Virus record (IMG/VR): IMGVR_UViG_3300045988_100766
Source: a virus
Reading direction: 5' to 3' (one strand)
DNA length: 41,833 bases
Part shown: positions 13,057 through 41,833 of the stretch, in pieces
Position numbering within the stretch: position 1 is the stretch's first letter
How the letters are laid out: every line of letters begins with the position of its first letter
Made by a program: the position numbers and the translations under genes
Notes under the pieces: model-generated
Told to the model about the DNA's origin: nothing
The model's database searches: none
Seen by the model: only the letters and a program-made list of their open reading frames with translations

Positions 13057-13385
13057 TTACGAGCAAACGCAACCCGCATCGCGGCAAGCCCGCGTACACC
13101 GATTATGTTAACTGGATCATGCGCTATTATGCGGCCAGTCCGGATACTGCGACCGCGAAAAACGATATCGAGCAGCGCAACTGGCAGGCGTGCAACCGTG
13201 TTCTGTCAGCGCTCCCCCTCGACGAGCGCCAAATCATGCTTGCCGTGTTTGCGTCCCCTGGCGACAACATGCAGCAGATTGTGGACAACGTTGCCGCCGA
13301 TCTGGATGTGCCGATCAACCGCGCCTGGCAGGTTGTGACCCAAACGACCAAACGAATTGCGAGAGAAAGGGGGTTGATTCCGTAA
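13053..13385 (+). CDS. Sigma-70 region-4-like HTH protein, putative late-gene transcriptional activator
   Basis: LPLDERQIMLAVF...DLDVPINRAWQVVTQTTKRIARE resembles sigma region 4. Lies directly upstream of terS. Confidence 0.55.
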   Translation: MITSKRNPHRGKPAYTDYVNWIMRYYAASPDTATAKNDIEQRNWQACNRVLSALPLDERQIMLAVFASPGDNMQQIVDNVAADLDVPINRAWQVVTQTTKRIARERGLIP

Positions 13386-14122
13386 TGGCTAAGGCAAATC
13401 CGCTTAAACGGCGCTTTCTTCGTACAGGGATGCCGCTATCTGAGATCAAACAACAAGTAGTCGCTCGTGGTACGCTGGTCACAATCGGCGATCTGCGCGC
13501 CTGCTGGTCGGCGAGCGAAACCGTGCCCAAGAACAAATACGATGCAATCATGGATACCCTGAACGAGATCGAGCACGGCAATATCATCGATGTAACGCCG
13601 GACATTAAAAAGGCCGCAACCCCGCAGGGCGGTATGGCCTCGATCACCGAGCACATGAGCGCAACCAATATCGAGATTGCCAACGCGGCTCATGCAGCCC
13701 TCTACTGGATGGATCGTCCCCGTGTGAAGACGGACGAAGAATGCGCAGCCCGTCTCGCGGAATTCTGGCAGTACACGGCGCAAACCGGCTCCTATCCAAC
13801 CGTCGAAAAGATGGCGCTTGCCCTGGGCGTAGATCGGAACACCCTCAACACCTGGAAGAATGGCGAGCTTGGAACATCCAAACGAAGGGTTGAGATGGTA
13901 CGAAAATCGTTCGGAATTATGGCAAGCATGTGTCAGGAATTGGCATCTACTGGCAAGATAAATGTCGTTGCTTGGATATTTACTGCGAAGAACTTCTTTG
14001 ATATGTCGGACAAACAGGAATTGGTGGTATCTCCCAACACCCCGCTAACCAACGTCCAAAGCGAGGAAGAATTGCGCAAGAAATATGCTGGGGCTATTGC
14101 AAACCTGTCGGACGAAAAATAA
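13385..14122 (+). CDS. terS: Terminase small subunit
   Basis: PTVEKMALALGVDRNTLNTWKNG...WIFTAKNFFDMSD matches the TerS HTH and C-terminal pattern. Sits at the head of the late region. Confidence 0.75.
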   Translation: MAKANPLKRRFLRTGMPLSEIKQQVVARGTLVTIGDLRACWSASETVPKNKYDAIMDTLNEIEHGNIIDVTPDIKKAATPQGGMASITEHMSATNIEIANAAHAALYWMDRPRVKTDEECAARLAEFWQYTAQTGSYPTVEKMALALGVDRNTLNTWKNGELGTSKRRVEMVRKSFGIMASMCQELASTGKINVVAWIFTAKNFFDMSDKQELVVSPNTPLTNVQSEEELRKKYAGAIANLSDEK

Positions 14123-14137
14123 AAACCAAATTCCATA

Positions 14138-14161
14138 GGCCGCCAAACAGGCGGTCTTTTT
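14138..14161 (+). terminator. Rho-independent terminator after terS
   Basis: GGCCGCC-AAACA-GGCGGTC stem-loop followed by TTTTT. Confidence 0.75.
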
Positions 14162-14172
14162 GATTTATGGGG

Positions 14173-14201
14173 TTGACAACGCATATGTTGTGTGATATGA
14201 T
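14173..14201 (+). promoter_or_regulatory. Sigma-70-type promoter, TTGACA-17-TATGAT with TG extended -10
   Basis: Read directly. Fires rightward into an AT-rich gap and then antisense to the FtsK-like gene. Confidence 0.55.
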
Positions 14202-14364
14202 AATATAGAATTATTATAATTAAAATTAAATATTAAATTGGGATAACTATATGTGTTCCTGCAAATGCCTTTATTTTGCCCTGTGACGGGCTTTTGCTTT
14301 GGGTATATATTTATATGGCTAACAGCGCAAAAACGACTGTGTGCAAACGTCGCGCGTCTGGTGG

Positions 14365-14408
14365 CAAAATAAACCCCCGTCAGGCGCTTTGCTTGCGTCT
14401 TGACGGGG
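14365..14408 (-). terminator. Terminator of the leftward island operon
   Basis: 8-bp stem CCCCGTCA/TGACGGGG followed on the minus strand by GTTTATTTTG, 18 nt past the stop. Confidence 0.65.
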
Positions 14409-14425
14409 TATCGTGGTGTTTGGGG

Positions 14426-15250
14426 TTATGGCACCATGACCAGCGCGGCAATGATAGCAACCAGGCCAAACGCCCATGCCGCGGCGGTTCTGGCTGCTGC
14501 ACGCTTCCGCGCCTTTTTGACGGCTTGGATCTGCGCTGACCAGCGGTCTGCCAGGTCGCGCGTCTCGGATTGGCTGTAATAATGCGGTTTGATTGGCTCC
14601 GGCTCGTTGCTCTGGGGCGTTACCATCAGGCCATAACCCCATTGCGGCAGCAGCTCGGCGCCGCTCTGATTGATGATGTTGCGGCTGTCCTGCGGAGTGG
14701 GCACGCGCAGGGCAATGCGGCAGTCTAAGTTAACCTTAATCGCGCCGGTGATGATGTCCCTGGTCGGACGCTGGGTGGCAAGGATCAAATGCACACGGGA
14801 CGAGCGGCCAAGCTGTGCAATGCGTTGGATGAGCGGCACAGCCTGTTTTTTGCTGGTGGTCATCAGGTCTGCGTACTCGTCGATAATCACATATACGTCC
14901 GGCTCGTCGCTGTCGTTGGCGTTGCGTGCCCTGGTGCGCCTGGTGCGCTCGTCGATCAGTTTGAGGGCGGCCGTTAGCTGCTCTATGATCTCGTCGGGCT
15001 CGGATGCGTAGCCGATGCAGTGCGGCACGCCGCGATATGGCCACAGCTCCGTGCGTTTGGGGTCGATCAGGATCAACTTGTGCTCGTCCGGATAGTCCAG
15101 CAGCGCTGTGTGGATGATGCTGCGCAGTAGTACGCTCTTGCCGCTGCCGGTGGTGCCTGCAATCAGGGTGTGGGTCTGCGCCAAAATGCGGCGCGCAAGG
15201 GTTGAGGCATCGCCTGACGGGCGCGTCCAAGTGGTTTTAATCGTTTTCAT
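14426..15250 (-). CDS. FtsK/SpoIIIE-family P-loop ATPase (motor core only) with C-terminal hydrophobic tail anchor
   Basis: Walker A GTTGSGKS, Walker B VYVIIDEYADL and LILATQRP. C-terminus is KKARKRAAARTAAAWAFGLVAIIAALVMVP. ATG 15250 follows SD AGGAGG. Confidence 0.8.
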   Translation of the reverse strand: MKTIKTTWTRPSGDASTLARRILAQTHTLIAGTTGSGKSVLLRSIIHTALLDYPDEHKLILIDPKRTELWPYRGVPHCIGYASEPDEIIEQLTAALKLIDERTRRTRARNANDSDEPDVYVIIDEYADLMTTSKKQAVPLIQRIAQLGRSSRVHLILATQRPTRDIITGAIKVNLDCRIALRVPTPQDSRNIINQSGAELLPQWGYGLMVTPQSNEPEPIKPHYYSQSETRDLADRWSAQIQAVKKARKRAAARTAAAWAFGLVAIIAALVMVP

Positions 15251-15281: not shown

Positions 15282-15719
15282 TTAGGCATGCGGGATATCG
15301 GCCTTGTGCCGGATGGCGTCGTACTGCGCCAGGATGGCGGCGTCATCATATCTGGCCGTGAGCCTTTGGATGGCGGGAAAGTTGCGGCGCTTAACGTCGG
15401 GGCCTACGGCGATCCACTGCCACGGGCCGCGAGACGTGGCAATGCTGCTGCCCTCCTGTATGTGCCAGACTGCCAGATGCAGCGCGATGTGGTACATGCC
15501 GTTTTGCATGTTAATGATATCGTGATAGCTCGTTGTCTTCTGCTCATAGCTGCGCTGCCAGGTGAGCGTGGCGGTTAGCGTGGTGCGCTCGTCAAGCTGG
15601 ATATCCTTCATGGCCCGCTTTTGCCCGCGAAAGATATAGTAGAGCTCGTCGAGGCGGAAACCGTTGTGCATCTTGGCGTTGATGGCGTTGATCTGTTCGC
15701 GGGTGATGGACTTAGACAT
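15282..15719 (-). CDS. Hypothetical 145-aa protein (island operon gene 3)
   Basis: ATG 15719 follows SD AGGAGGA. No family recognised. Confidence 0.6.
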   Translation of the reverse strand: MSKSITREQINAINAKMHNGFRLDELYYIFRGQKRAMKDIQLDERTTLTATLTWQRSYEQKTTSYHDIINMQNGMYHIALHLAVWHIQEGSSIATSRGPWQWIAVGPDVKRRNFPAIQRLTARYDDAAILAQYDAIRHKADIPHA

Positions 15720-15865: not shown

Positions 15866-16066
15866 TCAGTAGCAGGGATTGGCCTTGCTTAGCTCCCATT
15901 CCTCGCCGTACTTGTCGGCGTGGGCCTGCTCGTAGGCCGAGAAAAACTCCTGATCGGTGCAGGGCGCGAGCTTGTCGTTGAGCTCCGCACAGATGTCATC
16001 ATCCATCAGGGCGACGGCGGCGTTGTAATCGATCTCGGTCCCGTTGGCGTTAATAACCTTTTTCAT
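15866..16066 (-). CDS. Small acidic protein (66 aa; MKKVINANGTEIDYNAAVALMDDD...)
   Basis: Internal ATG 16066 lies 7 nt after SD AAGGAGGA. The sequence type recurs on Firmicutes mobile elements (from memory; family name not recalled). Confidence 0.6.
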   Translation of the reverse strand: MKKVINANGTEIDYNAAVALMDDDICAELNDKLAPCTDQEFFSAYEQAHADKYGEEWELSKANPCY

Positions 16067-16264
16067 TTTTTTGTCCTCCTTATTGTTTGTCTGTTGTGGT
16101 AGTTTCCCTTTGCCCTGGCTGCGCTCTGCGTCCTGCGCAATCAGCATCCGGATGTAGGCAGATCGGCTCAGCCCGTAGGCTGCCGCGCGCTTGTCCAAGT
16201 AGTCTGACAGGTCGCGAGTTAGTACGACACAGGTTGTTGTCTTGTCTCCGTCTTTCTTCAGCAT
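15866..16264 (-). CDS. Ribbon-helix-helix (CopG/Arc-like) protein; reading frame continues without a stop into the 66-aa acidic protein (132-aa long form)
   Basis: ATG 16264 follows SD AAGGAGGG. TTCVVLTRDLSDYLDKRAAAYGLSRSAYIRMLI is an RHH pattern. The ORF track shows no stop before 15866. Confidence 0.6.
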   Translation of the reverse strand: MLKKDGDKTTTCVVLTRDLSDYLDKRAAAYGLSRSAYIRMLIAQDAERSQGKGKLPQQTNNKEDKKMKKVINANGTEIDYNAAVALMDDDICAELNDKLAPCTDQEFFSAYEQAHADKYGEEWELSKANPCY

Positions 16265-16311: not shown

Positions 16312-16341
16312 ATTGTACAACAGTTATATATCTTTTGTCAA
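16312..16341 (-). promoter_or_regulatory. Leftward promoter P2, TTGACA-18-TACAAT
   Basis: Read on the minus strand. Confidence 0.5.
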
Positions 16342-16381
16342 CACCTTTTTTGAAAGTTTTTTGATTATTTTTGTCCCTCAT

Positions 16382-16410
16382 ATATTACAGCTTGCCCAGA
16401 TGTGTGTCAA
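16382..16410 (-). promoter_or_regulatory. Leftward promoter P1, TTGACA-17-TAATAT; -35 lies inside the left inverted repeat
   Basis: Read on the minus strand. Confidence 0.6.
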
Positions 16411-16519
16411 TAGGGTTATGTGCCCTATTTGCGATATATCAAAATAGATTGCATAACCCGTGTGATACATAATAATGATAGATTCTGTCCTGTCATATGG
16501 GTATACCCTATTGACACAC
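16402..16519. repeat. 15-bp perfect inverted repeat GTGTGTCAATAGGGT (16402-16416 / 16505-19) with extra CCCTATT half-sites
   Basis: Read directly. The two copies are separated by an 88-bp AT-rich spacer. There is an internal dyad AATAGGG-N7-CCCTATT (16409-16429) and a palindrome GGGTATACCC (16499-16508). Confidence 0.85.
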
Positions 16520-16698
16520 TTTTGCATGCGTAGGCGCTGCGCGTTGGGCTTGTGCTGCTGGTAGTGCTATGTGGCGGCGCTTGCCATCCCCCCCGGTATC
16601 CTGCCAGGCAACCCACCCCAGGGGGAAAGCGGGGCCGGATGCTCCCCTTCGTAAGTCCCCCGAATTTCCGAAAAGCAAAAAAGACTATCACAATCATA

Positions 16699-16727
16699 TT
16701 GACATATCAAAAACATTGTGATATACT
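16699..16727 (+). promoter_or_regulatory. Promoter of the recombinase gene, TTGACA-17-TATACT with TG extended -10, bracketed by the 9-bp inverted repeat TATCACAAT/ATTGTGATA
   Basis: Read directly. Inverted repeat copies at 16686-16694 and 16715-16723. Confidence 0.65.
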
Positions 16728-16763
16728 CAAATAGAACTGAGACGGCAGGAGGTGCAGTACGGG

Positions 16764-17330
16764 ATGAAAGTCGGGTATATCCGAGTATCGACGGAAGAGC
16801 AGAACACGGCGCGTCAGGACATTGCGATGCGGAACCTGGGCGTAGAAAAGGTGTTTGTGGATAAATGCAGCGGGAAGAACACAGCCAGACCGGCGTTGAA
16901 GGAGATGCTGAACTTCGTCCGGGAGGGAGACACGGTGATCGTCAGCGAGATCAGCAGGTTTGCGAGGAACACGAAGGATCTGCTTGGGCTGATTGACCAG
17001 TTGAAGGAAAAGGGCGTCCAGTTTGAATCTCAGAAAGAGAAGATCGACACGAACACGCCGACGGGGCAATTTATGCTGACGGTGTTTGCGGCGGTCAGTC
17101 AGCTTGAGAGGGATTATATCCTGGCCAGACAACGGGAAGGCATAGAAGCCAGGCGCGCCAGTGTCGGGTATCACGGCAGGCAGCCGATACAGATTGATGC
17201 GGACGCTTTTAAGCGCGAATACGATTTGTGGAAGGCTGGGCAGATCACTGCGGTTACGGCCATCCATCACTTGGGCGTTAGCGCCAGCACATTCTATCGC
17301 CGGGTAAAGGATTACGAGGGGCAGTCCTGA
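16764..17330 (+). CDS. Small serine recombinase (resolvase/invertase type, N-terminal catalytic domain + C-terminal HTH)
   Basis: MKVGYIRVSTEEQNTARQ (catalytic Ser motif) and C-terminal HTH ITAVTAIHHLGVSASTFYRRV. Confidence 0.9.
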   Translation: MKVGYIRVSTEEQNTARQDIAMRNLGVEKVFVDKCSGKNTARPALKEMLNFVREGDTVIVSEISRFARNTKDLLGLIDQLKEKGVQFESQKEKIDTNTPTGQFMLTVFAAVSQLERDYILARQREGIEARRASVGYHGRQPIQIDADAFKREYDLWKAGQITAVTAIHHLGVSASTFYRRVKDYEGQS

Positions 17331-17405: not shown

Positions 17406-19052
17406 ATGGATAAGCTGATTGAAGTAACGGATAAAAAGGTTTGCAAGCGTCCGGGAGATACGGGGGCGTGGGATGATCTGTTGGATGCGTTTGCAGCACT
17501 TGACCAGGGAAAGGCAACGCCGGAAATCCACGCGCTGAACAGGGAACGCCGTGGCATGATACAAGCGCAGATTATCAAGAATCAAAAGAATTTGGAGAAG
17601 ATGGGGGCTTTTCACACCCTGCTCAAGAAGTCGCTGCTGATTGATGCGCGTGTCGATTTTGATGCTTATATGCAATACGTCGAGTTTGAGCGTGATCCTG
17701 ATAAGCGGTTTTACCTGCCGAGACGGCAAGCGCTGCGTCCTGTTGTGGAAGCGCTGCAGAAGCTCGAAAACGGAGATTTGGATCTGTTGGCAATCAGCCT
17801 TCCTCCTGGCGTGGGCAAGACGACGGTTGCTATCTTTTTCCTGACCTGGCTTGCCGGGAACTATCCGGATATGCCTATCCTGGGCGGCAGTCACTCCGAT
17901 TCGATTATGCGCGGGGTATACGATGAGTGTCTGCGTATTATGCGCGGAAGCGGGGAATACATCTGGCACGAGGTCTTCCCGGAACTGCACATTAACAGCA
18001 CCAATGCCAATAACATGATGATCGACCTGGGCACGCCGAAACGCTTTGCCACGCTGGAATTTACGTCTGTCGGCGCAAAAAATGCCGGTCAGTTTCGAGC
18101 CGAAAAGCTGCTGTATTGCGATGACTTGTGCAGCGGCATTGAGGAAGCCATGAGCGCTGACCGGTTGGATAAGCTGTGGCAGTTGTATTCCACCGACTTG
18201 AAACAGCGCAAGATCGGAAACTGCGCGGAGTTGCACATTGCAACACGGTGGTCTGTCCGGGACGTGATCGGGCGCTTGGAGGATTTGTATGCGGGTGACC
18301 AGAAGAAGCAGTTTATCGCGCTGCCCGCCCTGAACGAGAACGACGAAAGCAATTTTGATTACGGCGCTACGGCTGCTGGATTTAGCACTGAAAAGTACCA
18401 TGATATCAAATATACCATGGATGAAGTAAGTTGGCGGGCGTTGTATATGAATCAGCCGATTGAGCGCGAAGGGTTGCTGTATCCAGAGGACGATCTTTTG
18501 CGTTACTGTGATCTACCTGCTGGGGAGCCTGATGCGATTATCGGAATTTGCGATACCAAGGACAAGGGCAAGGATTACGGCTTTATGCCTGCCGTGTATG
18601 CCTATGGCGACCAGTATTACCTTGTGGATTGTATCTGCGACAACTCGAACCCGGAGGTGGTAGAATCTCGAATGACGGACTTTTTGTACCGAAACAAGGT
18701 GCAACTGTGCCGTTTTGAATCCAATAGCGCTGGCCGGTCTATCGCGGAGAAGATCCAGAAAGAAGTGAAGGCGCTGGGAGGAATCACCAGCATTACCCAG
18801 CGATTTACAACCGAAAACAAGGAAACCAAGATCATTGTGAACTCGCCGTTTGTAAAGCAGCATGTTTTGTTTAAGAGCAAGGGGCTGTATGCGCCCAACA
18901 GCGACTATGGCCGAATGATGCGCATGCTTTGCTCCTACACCATGGCGGGAAAAAACAAAAACGACGACGTTCCGGACGGTATGGCGATGCTGGCTATGTA
19001 CTTGCAGTCCTTCACGAAGCAAAAAGTTGAAGTTTTTCGTCGCCCCTGTTGA
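17406..19052 (+). CDS. terL: Terminase large subunit
   Basis: Walker A PPGVGKTT and Walker B LLYCDDL, with a C-terminal nuclease-like half. Lies upstream of the portal gene. Confidence 0.85.
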   Translation: MDKLIEVTDKKVCKRPGDTGAWDDLLDAFAALDQGKATPEIHALNRERRGMIQAQIIKNQKNLEKMGAFHTLLKKSLLIDARVDFDAYMQYVEFERDPDKRFYLPRRQALRPVVEALQKLENGDLDLLAISLPPGVGKTTVAIFFLTWLAGNYPDMPILGGSHSDSIMRGVYDECLRIMRGSGEYIWHEVFPELHINSTNANNMMIDLGTPKRFATLEFTSVGAKNAGQFRAEKLLYCDDLCSGIEEAMSADRLDKLWQLYSTDLKQRKIGNCAELHIATRWSVRDVIGRLEDLYAGDQKKQFIALPALNENDESNFDYGATAAGFSTEKYHDIKYTMDEVSWRALYMNQPIEREGLLYPEDDLLRYCDLPAGEPDAIIGICDTKDKGKDYGFMPAVYAYGDQYYLVDCICDNSNPEVVESRMTDFLYRNKVQLCRFESNSAGRSIAEKIQKEVKALGGITSITQRFTTENKETKIIVNSPFVKQHVLFKSKGLYAPNSDYGRMMRMLCSYTMAGKNKNDDVPDGMAMLAMYLQSFTKQKVEVFRRPC

Positions 19053-36512: not shown

Positions 36513-36560
36513 TATTACACGCAGTATTACACGCATGCGTGTAGTTGCCTATTACACGCA
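36513..36560 (+). repeat. Arm-type repeats: TATTACACGCA x3 direct plus one inverted copy (attP right arm)
   Basis: Direct copies at 36513-23, 36525-35 and 36550-60. Inverted copy TGCGTGTA at 36536-43. Confidence 0.75.
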
Positions 36561-37673
36561 ATTCTCCGGGTCTCGATCAGGGCGTTTCATGGTGTTCGCA
36601 GCCTCGTGCGCGTCGCTGTCGTCGGGGTGCACATACCTGTCCATCATCTTGGTGCTCGACCAGCGCATGATCTTTTGCAGCACCTGCGGCGGCGTGTGCT
36701 CGTCTACGGCGTGGATGGTGGCGGTTGTGTGTCGGCAGGAGTAAGGCGTGAGCTTGCGCGTGATGCCGGCGGCCTTTAGCGCTCTGTAGTATCGCTTGTA
36801 AAAGGCCATATCGGTCATGGGGTACAGGCGGCCATCCTCTCCGGCCAGCGCCATTGCGTCCTCAAGCACGGGGCAAATGTCGTCTGGCAGGAACACGGCG
36901 GACTTTTTGCGCGTGTCCGTTTTGATGCCCACGCCGACGATCTCTCTGTTGGGCAGGTCGATCATGGATACGGTCAGCTTGAGCATTTCGCCGGTCATCA
37001 TGCCGGTGTAGATCATGATCAGCGGGATATGTACGTTGGTATCGCCGCGGTCGTACAGCGCCCACAGAAGCCGCTGCTCTTCGTCCGTAAAGGGCATGCG
37101 CTCATTTTCGTTGTTTTTCGGCAGCTTGATCATCGCGGGCAGATCCTTGTTGCACCATCCGTCAGCAGCGGCCAGTTTGAACAGGTTTGAAAGCAGCTGC
37201 TTCGCGTCTCTGGCGGGGTAAAAGGTTTTGCATGTGGAGCTGACAGCCTCTTGTAGGTCGGCTACCGTGATCTTGTTTACCGGCATACGGCTGATGGCTT
37301 GCAGCTTGTTCCACGCGATTTTGTAGGAGGTGCGCTTGCTTTCTGACAGGTCCTCCATCTGGCGGCCATAATACAGATCCCAATAGTTGCATAGGAGCGG
37401 CGTGCGCTTCGGGCGCGGGGTTTCAAGCAGGACAGCACAATAATTGATGGCTTCCGCTTTTGTCCTGAAACCATCCTTTGTGCGTTTGATCCGCTTGCCG
37501 TCTTCCTTGTATCCAAGCGTGACTTCTGCCGTCCAGCCTTTGCCGCGCCTGAAAGCGGTGCCGGTTCCGTTCGTTCTCGTTTTTACGCCCTTGGGCTTTT
37601 CCTGCCGCATCCCGCACCAGGGGCAGAACGGCGCGCCGTCCGGGATTGCGCCCTTGCACTTTTTGCATTCCAT
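36552..37673 (-). CDS. int: Tyrosine integrase with N-terminal zinc ribbon
   Basis: CKKCKG...CPWCG. Catalytic region SCRHTTAT...MDRYVH (H-x-x-R...Y). Adjacent to attP. The start could lie as far upstream as 37721. Confidence 0.9.
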   Translation of the reverse strand: MECKKCKGAIPDGAPFCPWCGMRQEKPKGVKTRTNGTGTAFRRGKGWTAEVTLGYKEDGKRIKRTKDGFRTKAEAINYCAVLLETPRPKRTPLLCNYWDLYYGRQMEDLSESKRTSYKIAWNKLQAISRMPVNKITVADLQEAVSSTCKTFYPARDAKQLLSNLFKLAAADGWCNKDLPAMIKLPKNNENERMPFTDEEQRLLWALYDRGDTNVHIPLIMIYTGMMTGEMLKLTVSMIDLPNREIVGVGIKTDTRKKSAVFLPDDICPVLEDAMALAGEDGRLYPMTDMAFYKRYYRALKAAGITRKLTPYSCRHTTATIHAVDEHTPPQVLQKIMRWSSTKMMDRYVHPDDSDAHEAANTMKRPDRDPENCV

Positions 37674-38948: not shown

Positions 38949-39467
38949 TTATTTGCGGATTTCAACCGTCACGCGCCTTGACCCATTCTCTACGACAAAA
39001 GAAAGCGGTTTGTTGGATCGCTCAATCTCCGCAGGAACCTTGAATGTATATATGCCCGTGGTGGAGCCTAACGGGATAAGTTCTTTCATAGTAGCCAAAA
39101 AATTTCTGTAGTTTTTAAAAGTACTATTGTATGAGTATTCGTTGTCATACACGACGCTTGTGCTCCATGCTCTTTCAACGCTTGTAGTAAGCTTATGGCT
39201 TGTTGGATTGTGAACCGTAGCATTTACAACAACCCATCTATAACCATCTTCGGCGCGGCCTAAATCTTCAAGCATGTAGTCGGAAAAGTATACTTTGTTC
39301 ACTTTCATTTCTACTTCTCCCAAAGAGAAAGTTTGTCCTAAAGAAACCGACACCTTCTCGATATTGCTATCTCCGACAAAAATCTCTAATACAATACCCA
39401 AAGCAAACACGAAGCCTATAAGAATGATACAAAATACTGATAACTTGTTATGCTTCTTTTTCTTCAC
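38949..39467 (-). CDS. Membrane-anchored DUF4352-like protein
   Basis: N-terminal TM helix LSVFCIILIGFVFALGIVL followed by a beta-rich domain (GYRWVVVNATVHN). GTG start overlaps the upstream TGA. The segment is AT-rich. Confidence 0.6.
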   Translation of the reverse strand: MKKKKHNKLSVFCIILIGFVFALGIVLEIFVGDSNIEKVSVSLGQTFSLGEVEMKVNKVYFSDYMLEDLGRAEDGYRWVVVNATVHNPTSHKLTTSVERAWSTSVVYDNEYSYNSTFKNYRNFLATMKELIPLGSTTGIYTFKVPAEIERSNKPLSFVVENGSRRVTVEIRK

Positions 39468-39862
39468 TTTTGGCTTCCTCCATTCTTCATTGCCTGCGCG
39501 ACAGACATGATAGCGTGCTGTTGTTCTGCGTTAAGCGACAATATGCAAAGCAGCAAATCCCGCCTAAATCCATCAGGATCAGCCATTATTTTCCCCAAAG
39601 CGTAGGACATCTCCTCGTCTACGGCAGATTCTTCGCGCAACGCCGAAATCGGAACATCGAATATTTCAGCCATTTGCACAATATAGCCGGGACGAGGATA
39701 CTTCTTCCCGTGTGCCCAGTCGCAAACCGACGCCCCAGAAACGCCGAGGCTTTTGGCAATAGAGCTTTGCTTGATGCCACTTTCTTCCAAAAAATGCCTA
39801 AGATTGCGAGAAAACGTAATTAGCTGCGCTTTCGTGGCTTGCTCGTTTTTCCTCTGAGACAT
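39464..39862 (-). CDS. XRE-family HTH regulator
   Basis: LRHFLEESGIKQSSIAKSLGVSGASVCDWAHGKKYP; SD GAGGTG upstream. Confidence 0.75.
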   Translation of the reverse strand: MSQRKNEQATKAQLITFSRNLRHFLEESGIKQSSIAKSLGVSGASVCDWAHGKKYPRPGYIVQMAEIFDVPISALREESAVDEEMSYALGKIMADPDGFRRDLLLCILSLNAEQQHAIMSVAQAMKNGGSQK

Positions 39863-41598: not shown

Positions 41599-41833
41599 AT
41601 GTGCCAACTCAAATCCTGCCTGGTGCTCAAGGATCGCGTGTATTGCCCGGATTACGACAGCCACCAGGATATGCTGGAAAAGCTGGGTATCAGGGACGAC
41701 TACCTGGGCGCCAGCAAAACCTTTGTGCGGGTGGAGCTTACGCCGCCGGACGACGTGAAATCGCTGATGGAACCGCTGGACAGGTGGACGCTCAATGTGG
41801 ATCAGGACGTAACGCCCGAGTGGTGGGATGAAA
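41599..41833 (+). CDS. Hypothetical protein, N-terminal part; ORF runs off window end and continues at nt 56 across the circular junction
   Basis: ATG 41599 preceded by SD AAGGAGGG (41583-41590). The frame is open to the window end (MCQLKSCLVLKDRVYCPDYDSH...). It is missing from the ORF track because no stop lies in the window. Confidence 0.7.
   Translation, partial: MCQLKSCLVLKDRVYCPDYDSHQDMLEKLGIRDDYLGASKTFVRVELTPPDDVKSLMEPLDRWTLNVDQDVTPEWWDE
41779..41833. repeat. Terminal direct repeat copy 2 (identical to 1-55)
   Basis: 55/55 nt identity with window start. Confidence 0.95.

Follow-up and report, generated by a model that had tools for sequence, protein, structure and literature searches.

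What would a DNA motor of the FtsK type do if it were reduced to a single ATPase domain and held at the membrane by its C-terminus? The question is raised by mini-FtsK, a 274-aa protein encoded on the minus strand (14426-15250) of the virus record IMGVR_UViG_3300045988_100766; the whole 41,833-nt stretch of that record is referred to here as the window, and its features are collected in Table 1. A preliminary description of the gene had taken it for a minimal FtsK/SpoIIIE motor with a C-terminal tail anchor in place of the N-terminal membrane domains. In our analysis mini-FtsK is a beta-domain-only member of the FtsK/SpoIIIE family, a tail anchor is predicted for its clade, and the gene belongs to an accessory island between the terminase genes terS and terL. 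We tentatively read it as a pump that would draw phage DNA inward at the membrane.

Translation is assigned to the ATG at 15250, which lies 8 nt downstream of an AGGAGG ribosome-binding site, and ends at the stop codon 14426-14428. The longest reading frame reaches 15349; the start at 15250 is backed by the AGGAGG sequence and by the public gene calls, which also give 274 aa. The Pfam profile PF01580 (FtsK_SpoIIIE) matches the protein with E=3.8e-30 (105.4 bits, gathering cut-off 24), the PHROG 1358 profile “FtsK/SpoIIIE-like protein” with E=1e-58, and FtsK motor domains in the PDB with E values of ~1e-35. The five motifs quoted in the preliminary description are all found, GTTGSGKS at residues 32-39, DPKRTEL at 63-69, VIIDEYADL at 121-129, ATQRP at 158-162 and DSRNII at 188-193, and together with the phage genes around it the Pfam match bears out a minimal FtsK-family ATPase inside a tailed temperate phage. 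The reported lack of a gamma domain and of an N-terminal transmembrane (TM) block also stands: the Pfam scan of mini-FtsK returned no match to FtsK_4TM, FtsK_alpha or Ftsk_gamma, and hydropathy revealed no hydrophobic segment N-terminal to the P-loop, which is preceded by just 25 residues. The “alpha/beta motor” of that description has to be narrowed, however. Residues 24-238 align with residues 213-464 of the PaFtsK construct, which comprise the beta (RecA) domain only; with so few residues ahead of the P-loop strand, the ~200 PaFtsK residues of the alpha domain have no counterpart, and Foldseek covers about half of alpha-beta targets with the mini-FtsK model (TMt ~0.52). Membership of the FtsK/SpoIIIE ATPase family with a beta domain only is thus well supported. 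Since the 4TM, alpha and gamma domains are all missing, mini-FtsK is not an orthologue of FtsK or SpoIIIE; against the NCBIfam FtsK equivalog PRK10263 it scores 122.8 bits, with a cut-off of 1566.

The residues that would be needed for DNA pumping were examined in a family alignment of 47 diverse sequences (A1), on which an AlphaFold2 (AF2) model of the monomer was also built (mean pLDDT 92). The best PDB matches of this model are the FtsK motors 2IUT, 2IUS and 6T8B (Foldseek TMq 0.75, 33-35% identity). Cryo-electron microscopy of translocating FtsK identified R620 of PaFtsK as the arginine finger, R632, S634, G640 and K643 as the DNA contacts of loop II, and K657 and R661 as those of loop I (PMC7321959); their equivalents in mini-FtsK were assigned by sequence alignment. 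Across A1 the family keeps four of four DNA-contact residues in loop II and one of two in loop I, along with the arginine finger and the catalytic residues of both Walker motifs (Table 1). The trans-acting arginine finger and the FtsK-type pore loops point to a ring-forming double-stranded DNA (dsDNA) translocase and not to a protein-secretion ATPase. Mini-FtsK most likely assembles into an ATP-driven ring on dsDNA, for which we infer a hexamer from the conserved arginine finger, and, because it has no gamma domain, it would most likely translocate without reading the sequence. The core is under strong purifying selection, with a ratio of nonsynonymous to synonymous substitution rates (dN/dS) of 0.12 against an 89%-identical relative.

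This degree of conservation bears on one alternative, in which mini-FtsK acts as a beta-only decoy that interferes with host FtsK/SpoIIIE in division, segregation or sporulation. A decoy would keep the subunit-interface arginine finger and dispense with the alpha, gamma and septum-targeting parts, as is the case here, and the PHROG category of the family includes “host takeover”; membrane localization would moreover put mini-FtsK where host FtsK acts. Yet full conservation of catalytic and DNA-contact residues at a dN/dS of 0.12 exceeds what a decoy needs, and a scan of genome contigs, which returned only cellular FtsK, gave just 33-45% identity to mini-FtsK, low for the formation of mixed hexamers. 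We regard this alternative as very unlikely.

The second defining feature of the protein is its C-terminus. The only strongly hydrophobic segment of mini-FtsK covers residues 255-273 and is followed by a single residue; over a 19-mer its mean Kyte-Doolittle (KD) hydropathy reaches 2.34, with a Hessa sum of -1.32 kcal/mol. Six K/R residues lie directly before the tail helix, with 1-2 residues after it, and AF2 draws residues 227-272 as one continuous helix. The basic stretch and single hydrophobic C-terminal helix of the preliminary description, KKARKRAAAR followed by TAAAWAFGLVAIIAALVMVP, are therefore found as claimed, the TM call itself resting on hydropathy scales. Mini-FtsK shows the features by which tail-anchored proteins are recognized in sequence, namely a single TM segment in the final ~30 residues, a very short end beyond it on the extracytoplasmic side, a positive cytoplasmic flank, and neither a signal nor a TM segment at the N-terminus. 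Between relatives the tail sequence has diverged (dN/dS 0.5-0.6 vs 0.12 for the core) yet remained hydrophobic, with KD values of 2.3-2.5 within the clade and 2.49 in the relative L002. Such fast change with retention of the frame, the basic stretch and the hydrophobicity within the clade is the pattern expected for a TM segment. The mini-FtsK of this clade is predicted to be tail-anchored, with its motor on the cytoplasmic face of the membrane. In a comparison with the 99%-identical relative L001, the first 720 nt of the gene are identical and the last 102 nt (window 14429-14530 vs L001 10720-10825) carry five substitutions; the clustering of these changes at the anchor suggests either a recombination boundary or faster evolution exactly there.

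How general is this arrangement? A word-indexed homologue search scored 8,000 candidates, 6,823 of which passed E<=0.001. Among the 120 homologue clusters listed from it, nearly all are 235-260 aa long (~245 aa for a typical phage orthologue), and a hydrophobic tail is present in three, all belonging to this clade (89-99% identity); the remaining 117 end 0-20 basic and aromatic residues after a conserved “RVxWWxxQ” helix. None of the mini-FtsK proteins at 80 IMG/VR loci has a C-terminal TM segment. A wider library of 50%-identity representatives yielded 42,566 proteins at E<=0.001, cellular FtsK included, and 120 small proteins among its top 150 matches were surveyed for TM segments: five (~4%) have one at the C-terminus, five (~4%) at the N-terminus and 106 (~88%) none. 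The five C-terminal cases are unrelated to one another in sequence and in linker. One orthologue with an N-terminal TM segment sits in the same terS/FtsK/recombinase/TerL locus. Membrane anchors thus appear, from these sequences, to have been gained independently and at either end of the protein. What the preliminary description had called a “reversed topology” holds as the prediction of a C-terminal TM segment here, but it is a sporadic variant and not a design of the family, which the tail anchor does not define.

The tails without a TM segment carry a median net charge of +3, and some look like amphipathic targeting helices of the MinD type or like interfacial motifs rich in Arg and Trp (KGFFSGLFRRSA, GLFSRLFKRSA, KSIFERIAARL, NKIFNKLYKKAYI, RRRWWQR). 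In a test of amphipathicity they gave a mean z of 0.8, a clear signal for some tail types only and one affected by imperfect tail delimitation, so that their amphipathic character is suggestive. Two departures from the usual size were also seen. The IMG/VR orthologues L020 and L039, with open reading frames (ORFs) of 432-435 aa, have a ~190-residue C-terminal extension in place of the short basic tail, and the best profile matches include giant proteins of 2,200-3,075 aa (P0121, P0122, P0126, P0128, P0129, P0132, P0133 and others) in each of which FtsK-like ATPase stretches follow one another in tandem, five to eight of them and in most cases seven.

The tail data also allow a different view, namely that the hydrophobic segment is an oligomerization helix or a recent, near-neutral extension and that mini-FtsK is soluble, perhaps helping to process concatemers beside terS. 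The dN/dS of the tail relative to that of the core, the 117 of 120 listed clusters that lack such a tail, a TM call made from hydropathy scales only and the tight linkage to terS all fit this view. It sits poorly with 20 uncharged residues of KD 2.3-2.5 kept in both diverged relatives, six K/R before them and the end of the protein after them, and with the independent gain of TM segments by other family members; moreover, the gene and the packaging genes are on opposite strands, and phages with a related TerL lack the gene. A soluble mini-FtsK accordingly appears quite unlikely.

Comparison with known systems places mini-FtsK closest to FtsK and SpoIIIE, with which it shares the RecA-like beta domain, Walker A and B, the arginine finger and pore loop II, making them its best match in both sequence and fold. 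These proteins, however, are ~800-1,300 aa long and possess an N-terminal 4-TM domain, a long linker, an alpha domain and a gamma domain that engages FtsK-orienting polar sequences (KOPS) and XerD, none of which mini-FtsK has, and they are anchored at the N-terminus, whereas mini-FtsK is predicted to be anchored at the C-terminus. Within PHROG 1358, of which it is a direct member, the typical orthologue of ~245 aa has a short basic/aromatic tail and no TM segment, to which this clade adds a tail anchor of ~25-30 residues. It is likewise a member of PF01580, and public records already label close relatives “DNA translocase FtsK”. The literature yielded no FtsK-family protein with a C-terminal tail anchor, and we know of none.

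Other FtsK-HerA superfamily ATPases, among them EccC/EssC, TcpA, TraB and HerA, all match mini-FtsK much more weakly than FtsK does. TcpA of pCW3 (6O1W), TraB of Streptomyces and Orf21 of Tn916 are likewise encoded by mobile elements and act on DNA at the membrane, but they are N-terminally anchored, and TraB has a C-terminal winged helix-turn-helix domain; mini-FtsK has neither. Its match to TcpA in the PDB has an E value of 9e-9, vs ~1e-35 for FtsK; its NCBIfam scores are 28.7 bits for TraB (cut-off 800) and 28.9 for TraD (cut-off 366), and Pfam TrwB_AAD_bind is below its cut-off. A place in a conjugative coupling-protein family, the possibility that the preliminary description had set against its own proposal, is not what these scores indicate. 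We also rejected an origin as a fragment of an integrative and conjugative element on the basis of these scores, the absence of transfer genes and the phage-specific synteny: the ORFs scanned across the window include no relaxase, type IV secretion system or transfer gene, and include instead genes for replication, packaging, lysis and lysogeny. The type VII models EccC and EssC score 91 (cut-off 509) and 75 (cut-off 778), and mini-FtsK has a single ATPase domain, not two or three in tandem. SftA of B. subtilis keeps the alpha, beta and gamma domains and lacks a TM segment, yet acts at the membrane. SftA and TdtA of Thermus thus provide precedent for TM-less or short FtsK-HerA motors at the membrane or septum, although neither has a C-terminal TM segment. 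TdtA is a membrane-binding hexamer with a pore sized for dsDNA (PMC5365140); it is HerA-like and paired with NurA, whereas mini-FtsK is of the FtsK type. The C-terminus of SspH (3e-28) and Mad8 of MADS (1e-24), itself also small, match the ATPase domain of mini-FtsK, but the Ssp and MADS partner genes are absent beside it, three neighbours give no relevant PADLOC match, and mini-FtsK lies in an accessory operon of a phage, together with an anti-CRISPR. As judged by these comparisons, mini-FtsK is not part of a known defence system and is neither a coupling protein nor a type VII secretion ATPase.

These features led us to a model for the role of mini-FtsK. In FtsK, DNA moves from the beta face to the alpha face of the ring. 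The C-terminus of the beta domain, which carries gamma, is taken to be on the DNA-entry face, since gamma must meet KOPS and XerD ahead of the motor. A ring tethered to the cytoplasmic face of the membrane by a ~14-residue basic linker and a tail anchor would turn this entry face toward the membrane, the opposite of FtsK/SpoIIIE, and would therefore draw dsDNA away from the membrane and into the cytoplasm. Because the tether is so short, the axis of the DNA would have to meet the membrane, an arrangement that would make sense only at a trans-membrane DNA conduit, the obvious one being the phage ejection channel; the natural substrate would then be the injected phage genome as it emerges from the membrane. 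In this model an early-expressed accessory motor, encoded in an anti-defence or takeover operon, would speed or secure entry of its own genome, possibly clearing bound host proteins on the way. To a pump that faces inward and works on phage DNA at the membrane we give a probability of roughly 0.3, and we take the phage's own genome as its cargo because the operon is headed by an anti-CRISPR fusion and the slot for morons lies elsewhere, beside the repressor and integrase genes.

Several observations weigh against this model. The assumed polarity of the ring, with the beta C-terminus on the entry face, is carried over from FtsK, and ring formation and DNA pumping by mini-FtsK are extrapolations because it lacks the alpha domain, which in FtsK contributes to both ring and pore, and does not conserve K657 of loop I. 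Most family members have no TM segment and an N-terminal one occurs in the same locus, which weakens arguments from the anchored end. Self-import requires transcription before entry is complete, and with headful, permuted ends this would be true for some virions only. None of the 48 phages that combine a highly similar TerL with enough flank carries the gene, so its function is dispensable; the PHROG category “moron/host takeover” and the occurrence of FtsK-like modules in defence systems fit exclusion or defence equally well; and no characterized member of the phage mini-FtsK family was found in the literature.

Further evidence comes from the operon in which the gene lies. It runs leftward from a ribbon-helix-helix (RHH)-AcrIC5 fusion through a 145-aa ORFan to mini-FtsK, all three genes having AGGAGG-type ribosome-binding sites. 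The AcrIC5 match (PF22147) spans the whole 53-position profile, and AcrIC5 is an experimentally validated type I-C anti-CRISPR; the fusion looks like a self-regulating anti-CRISPR with a logic resembling that of AcrIIA1. Mini-FtsK is the last and only conserved gene of the operon, the upstream genes being highly variable ORFans. A conserved partner or specificity subunit upstream of mini-FtsK was considered and rejected, as even the most widespread cluster of upstream ORFs was seen in only 17 of 86 loci and no such cluster has a Pfam or PHROG function. With its own candidate promoters, operator repeats and terminator, and with no minus-strand terminator predicted inside it, the leftward operon is, as far as predicted signals can tell, an autonomous unit.

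The company of AcrIC5 and variable ORFans, as in anti-defence clusters, invites the alternative that mini-FtsK is a cytoplasmic ring that strips Cascade, restriction complexes or nucleoid silencers from DNA, its tether being incidental or serving localization. Such a ring would require no TM segment, in keeping with most orthologues, and more distant FtsK-like homologues are found in several hundred records of Bacillus, Listeria, Staphylococcus and Mycobacterium phages, some of which we take to be strictly lytic. Stripping of DNA-bound proteins by FtsK has been reported (PMC2800217). Recurrent gain of TM segments at either end and the basic/aromatic tails, on the other hand, are left unexplained, and we hold this alternative to be unlikely.

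The gene order terS -> / <- FtsK <- variable genes / -> (recombinase) -> TerL -> portal is found again in close relatives, in homologues sharing ~53% identity and, where the flanks are long enough, in nearly all of the 80 IMG/VR loci; in nearly all of those loci that include the downstream flank, terS is the next gene after mini-FtsK, in convergent orientation. This synteny of terS, FtsK and TerL spans two TerL lineages. Between the window and other FtsK-bearing phages, identity is 52% for FtsK, 49% for portal, 36% for TerL, 30% for TerS and 28% for the recombinase, making FtsK the best-conserved protein of the neighbourhood. The 80 IMG/VR phages with the TerL most similar to that of the window (44-62% identity) were collected, 48 of which have at least 5 kb of upstream flank. 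None of these 48 carries FtsK, and a core function in the phage lineage was rejected on that basis. A terS match is present in 21 of them, and most of these 21 keep a terS-TerL gap of 3.5-5.5 kb, sometimes with a recombinase. Since FtsK is absent from these relatives while the gap is mostly kept, the FtsK operon is a widespread cargo of a terS-terL accessory island, and it has been exchanged between, or retained in, two terminase lineages. The serine recombinase was also considered as an integrase or as the partner in an FtsK-XerCD-like pair; both were rejected, as there is a separate tyrosine integrase, ~40% of loci give no recombinase match and the gamma domain, which Xer activation requires, is missing. 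By tblastn the recombinase is matched in ~50 of 85 FtsK-bearing loci (~60%) and also in several FtsK-less TerL relatives.

An accessory gene of this kind may instead serve superinfection exclusion or defence, the main rival of the import model, with a membrane motor made by the prophage or early in infection capturing rival DNA and jamming or expelling it. Its patchy distribution (0 of 48 TerL relatives), its PHROG category “moron” and its position in a self-contained unit on the opposite strand, equipped with promoter and terminator candidates, are moron-like, but that unit is shared with a counter-defence gene, the anti-CRISPR. Superinfection exclusion (Sie) proteins typically have membrane anchors, yet ~88% of family representatives are TM-less, and on the FtsK polarity premise a C-terminal anchor would pump inward and so help the intruder. 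Mini-FtsK resembles the ATPase parts of SspH and Mad8, both of them defence proteins, although no nuclease or other effector is conserved beside it and the neighbouring genes match no PADLOC model; surface-lipoprotein-type domains (DUF4352, DUF5067) do occur in the same island of relatives. The phage itself is temperate, with a tyrosine integrase and an existing integrated copy. We know of no Sie system with an FtsK-like motor. Exclusion is in our view possible though doubtful.

A more specific form of the import model concerns the position of the island in this large group of gut phages of the headful type. The island lies just downstream of the presumed pac site, would be transcribed against the direction of packaging and carries fast-evolving cargo for counter-defence, in the window an anti-CRISPR. 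The first headfuls of a packaging series would deliver it to a new cell with the leading DNA, promoter first, and it could be viewed as a “leading-end” island. A beta-only ring attached by its C-terminus, through a TM segment here and in most relatives through a tail of basic/amphipathic character, would reverse the geometry of FtsK/SpoIIIE from DNA exporter to importer and bring in the rest of the genome. We consider this elaboration improbable as it stands.

Table 1. Coordinates of features in the window (41,833 nt) that bear on mini-FtsK and its surroundings
Feature	Coordinates	Strand	Basis or remark
mini-FtsK gene, 274 aa: beta/RecA domain, basic linker, C-terminal hydrophobic helix	14426..15250	-	Pfam, PDB, hydropathy, AF2
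Predicted tail-anchor TM helix TAAAWAFGLVAIIAALVMVP, residues 255-274	14429..14488	-	KD, Hessa, AF2 helix
Basic juxtamembrane stretch KKARKRAAAR, residues 245-254	14489..14518	-	Positive-inside signal; kept in 89% relative
Walker A GTTGSGKS, residues 32-39	15134..15157	-	G32, S36, G37, K38, S39 invariant in 47-sequence A1
Walker B VIIDEYADL, residues 121-129	14864..14890	-	D124, E125 invariant in 47-sequence A1
QLGRSS with R149 (= PaFtsK arginine finger R620)	14798..14815	-	R149 invariant in A1
Pore loop II ATQRPTRDIITGAIK	14735..14779	-	R161, T163, G169, K172 = PaFtsK R632, S634, G640, K643; all four invariant
Pore loop I region PTPQDSRNII	14672..14701	-	R190 = PaFtsK R661, at least 90% conserved; K657 position = P186, not conserved
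RHH (VapB/Arc-like) N-terminal + AcrIC5 C-terminal fusion, 132 aa, first operon gene	15866..16264	-	Pfam PF22147 E=2.6e-23; VapB-like RHH 5.6e-6
145-aa ORFan directly upstream of mini-FtsK, 31-nt gap	15282..15719	-	Gene calls
Best sigma-70-like leftward promoter candidate, TTGACA-18-TACAAT	16312..16341	-	Consensus match only
Two further leftward promoter candidates	16382-16410, 16469-16496	-	Consensus match only
Operator-like inverted repeats with TGTCAATAGGGT half-sites; 20-nt arms 16397-16416 and 16505-16524, 90% complementary, 88 nt apart	16397..16524	.	Divergent control region
Intrinsic-terminator-like hairpin (CCCCGUCA...UGACGGGG) followed by GUUUAUUUUG U-tract	14362..14409	-	~17 nt past mini-FtsK stop; minimum free energy -23 kcal/mol, z = -2.2
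Small terminase terS, gp3-like, convergent with mini-FtsK	13385..14122	+	Pfam, PHROG
Terminator-like hairpin after terS	14137-14157	+	Hairpin prediction
Small serine recombinase/invertase, 188 aa, divergent from operon, just upstream of TerL	16764..17330	+	Pfam Resolvase 3.7e-43; PHROG DNA invertase 4.9e-61
Large terminase TerL	17406..19052	+	PHROG 38, 2.2e-59
Tyrosine integrase	36552-37673		

The remaining observations concern the control region, the cassette and the phage as a whole. The TGTCAATAGGGT inverted repeats are probably operators, and further palindromes of this type lie at 16491-16516 and 16686-16723 in the control region 16381-16752, beside the serine recombinase. An invertible promoter flipped by that recombinase was considered and rejected, as the window, L001 and L002 are collinear across the repeats and no inversion was seen. 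A rightward sigma-70-like promoter candidate at 14169-14201 (+) faces that at 16312-16345 (-) from the other side of the cassette, both being strong and having similar -35 contexts (GGGGTTGACAA and GGTGTTGACAA); the rightward one starts just past the terS terminator and would either run antisense through mini-FtsK or, within the 300-nt gap between terS and FtsK, give rise to a small RNA. A related repeat of 20 nt, TGTGATAT..AATAGAA, occurs at 14191, 16430 and 16717. Rfam gave no credible match to a known RNA in the terS-FtsK gap or the control region.

The 145-aa ORFan has no Pfam, PHROG or PADLOC match. The window has one copy of it, whereas L001 (9028-9969), L169, L171 and L172 each have a tandem pair of paralogues (145 and 144 aa); even near-identical phages thus differ in the content of their cassette. 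Gene calls for AcrIC5 exist in the relatives L001 and L166-L171 and are missing in L002 and L003.

The window is a complete metagenome contig (ERZ824620 NODE_800) with an exact 55-bp terminal direct repeat (1-55 / 41779-41833), an overlap that indicates a circular or circularly permuted genome and is consistent with a complete genome of ~41.8 kb and headful, permuted packaging. The ends of contigs around FtsK, examined for clustering upstream as a sign of physical termini, are distributed symmetrically. Gene content is that of a temperate gut phage of the siphovirus type: tyrosine integrase, helix-turn-helix (HTH) repressors, a DUF927 primase-helicase, a single-stranded DNA-binding protein, a gp3-like TerS and TerL, along with an SPP1-type portal, an SU10-type capsid protein, an NlpC/P60 lysin and a holin. 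The integrated copy was found in a 225-kb contig. Only circular forms of the phage were seen at the flanks of the integrase. A slot that separates the repressor genes from the integrase (38949-39862, minus strand) holds a DUF4352 protein and an HTH protein in the window and, in the relative L177 (1829-2666), an Mrr_cat/NA-iREase1 nuclease-like gene; it is a second accessory hotspot, of the classical moron/defence type.

FtsK-like genes have been annotated in thousands of phage genomes, and the literature yielded no assigned role for any of them. The present analysis identifies an abundant gut-phage lineage of such proteins as beta-only motors that keep the ATPase motifs, the arginine finger and most DNA contacts, and shows the family at a constant genomic position, within an operon where an anti-CRISPR may be present. 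The tail anchor alone, found in ~4% of the family, is a minor architectural twist, and the terS-terL operon context is more informative than the reversed topology; it is the abundant, constrained and positionally fixed family that makes a worthwhile target. Should mini-FtsK prove soluble or a simple moron, the finding would reduce to a modest architectural variant of a known family; an import motor encoded at the leading end, if real, would be a new class of phage genome-internalization motor. The tail-anchored clade is the most tractable entry to these questions, as it predicts a dsDNA pump held by the end opposite to that of FtsK/SpoIIIE. If the position of the anchor sets the direction of pumping, the polarity of the motor would be linked to its function, import vs export, and the system could show how some phages of Gram-positive-type hosts complete or protect the entry of their genomes or exclude their rivals.

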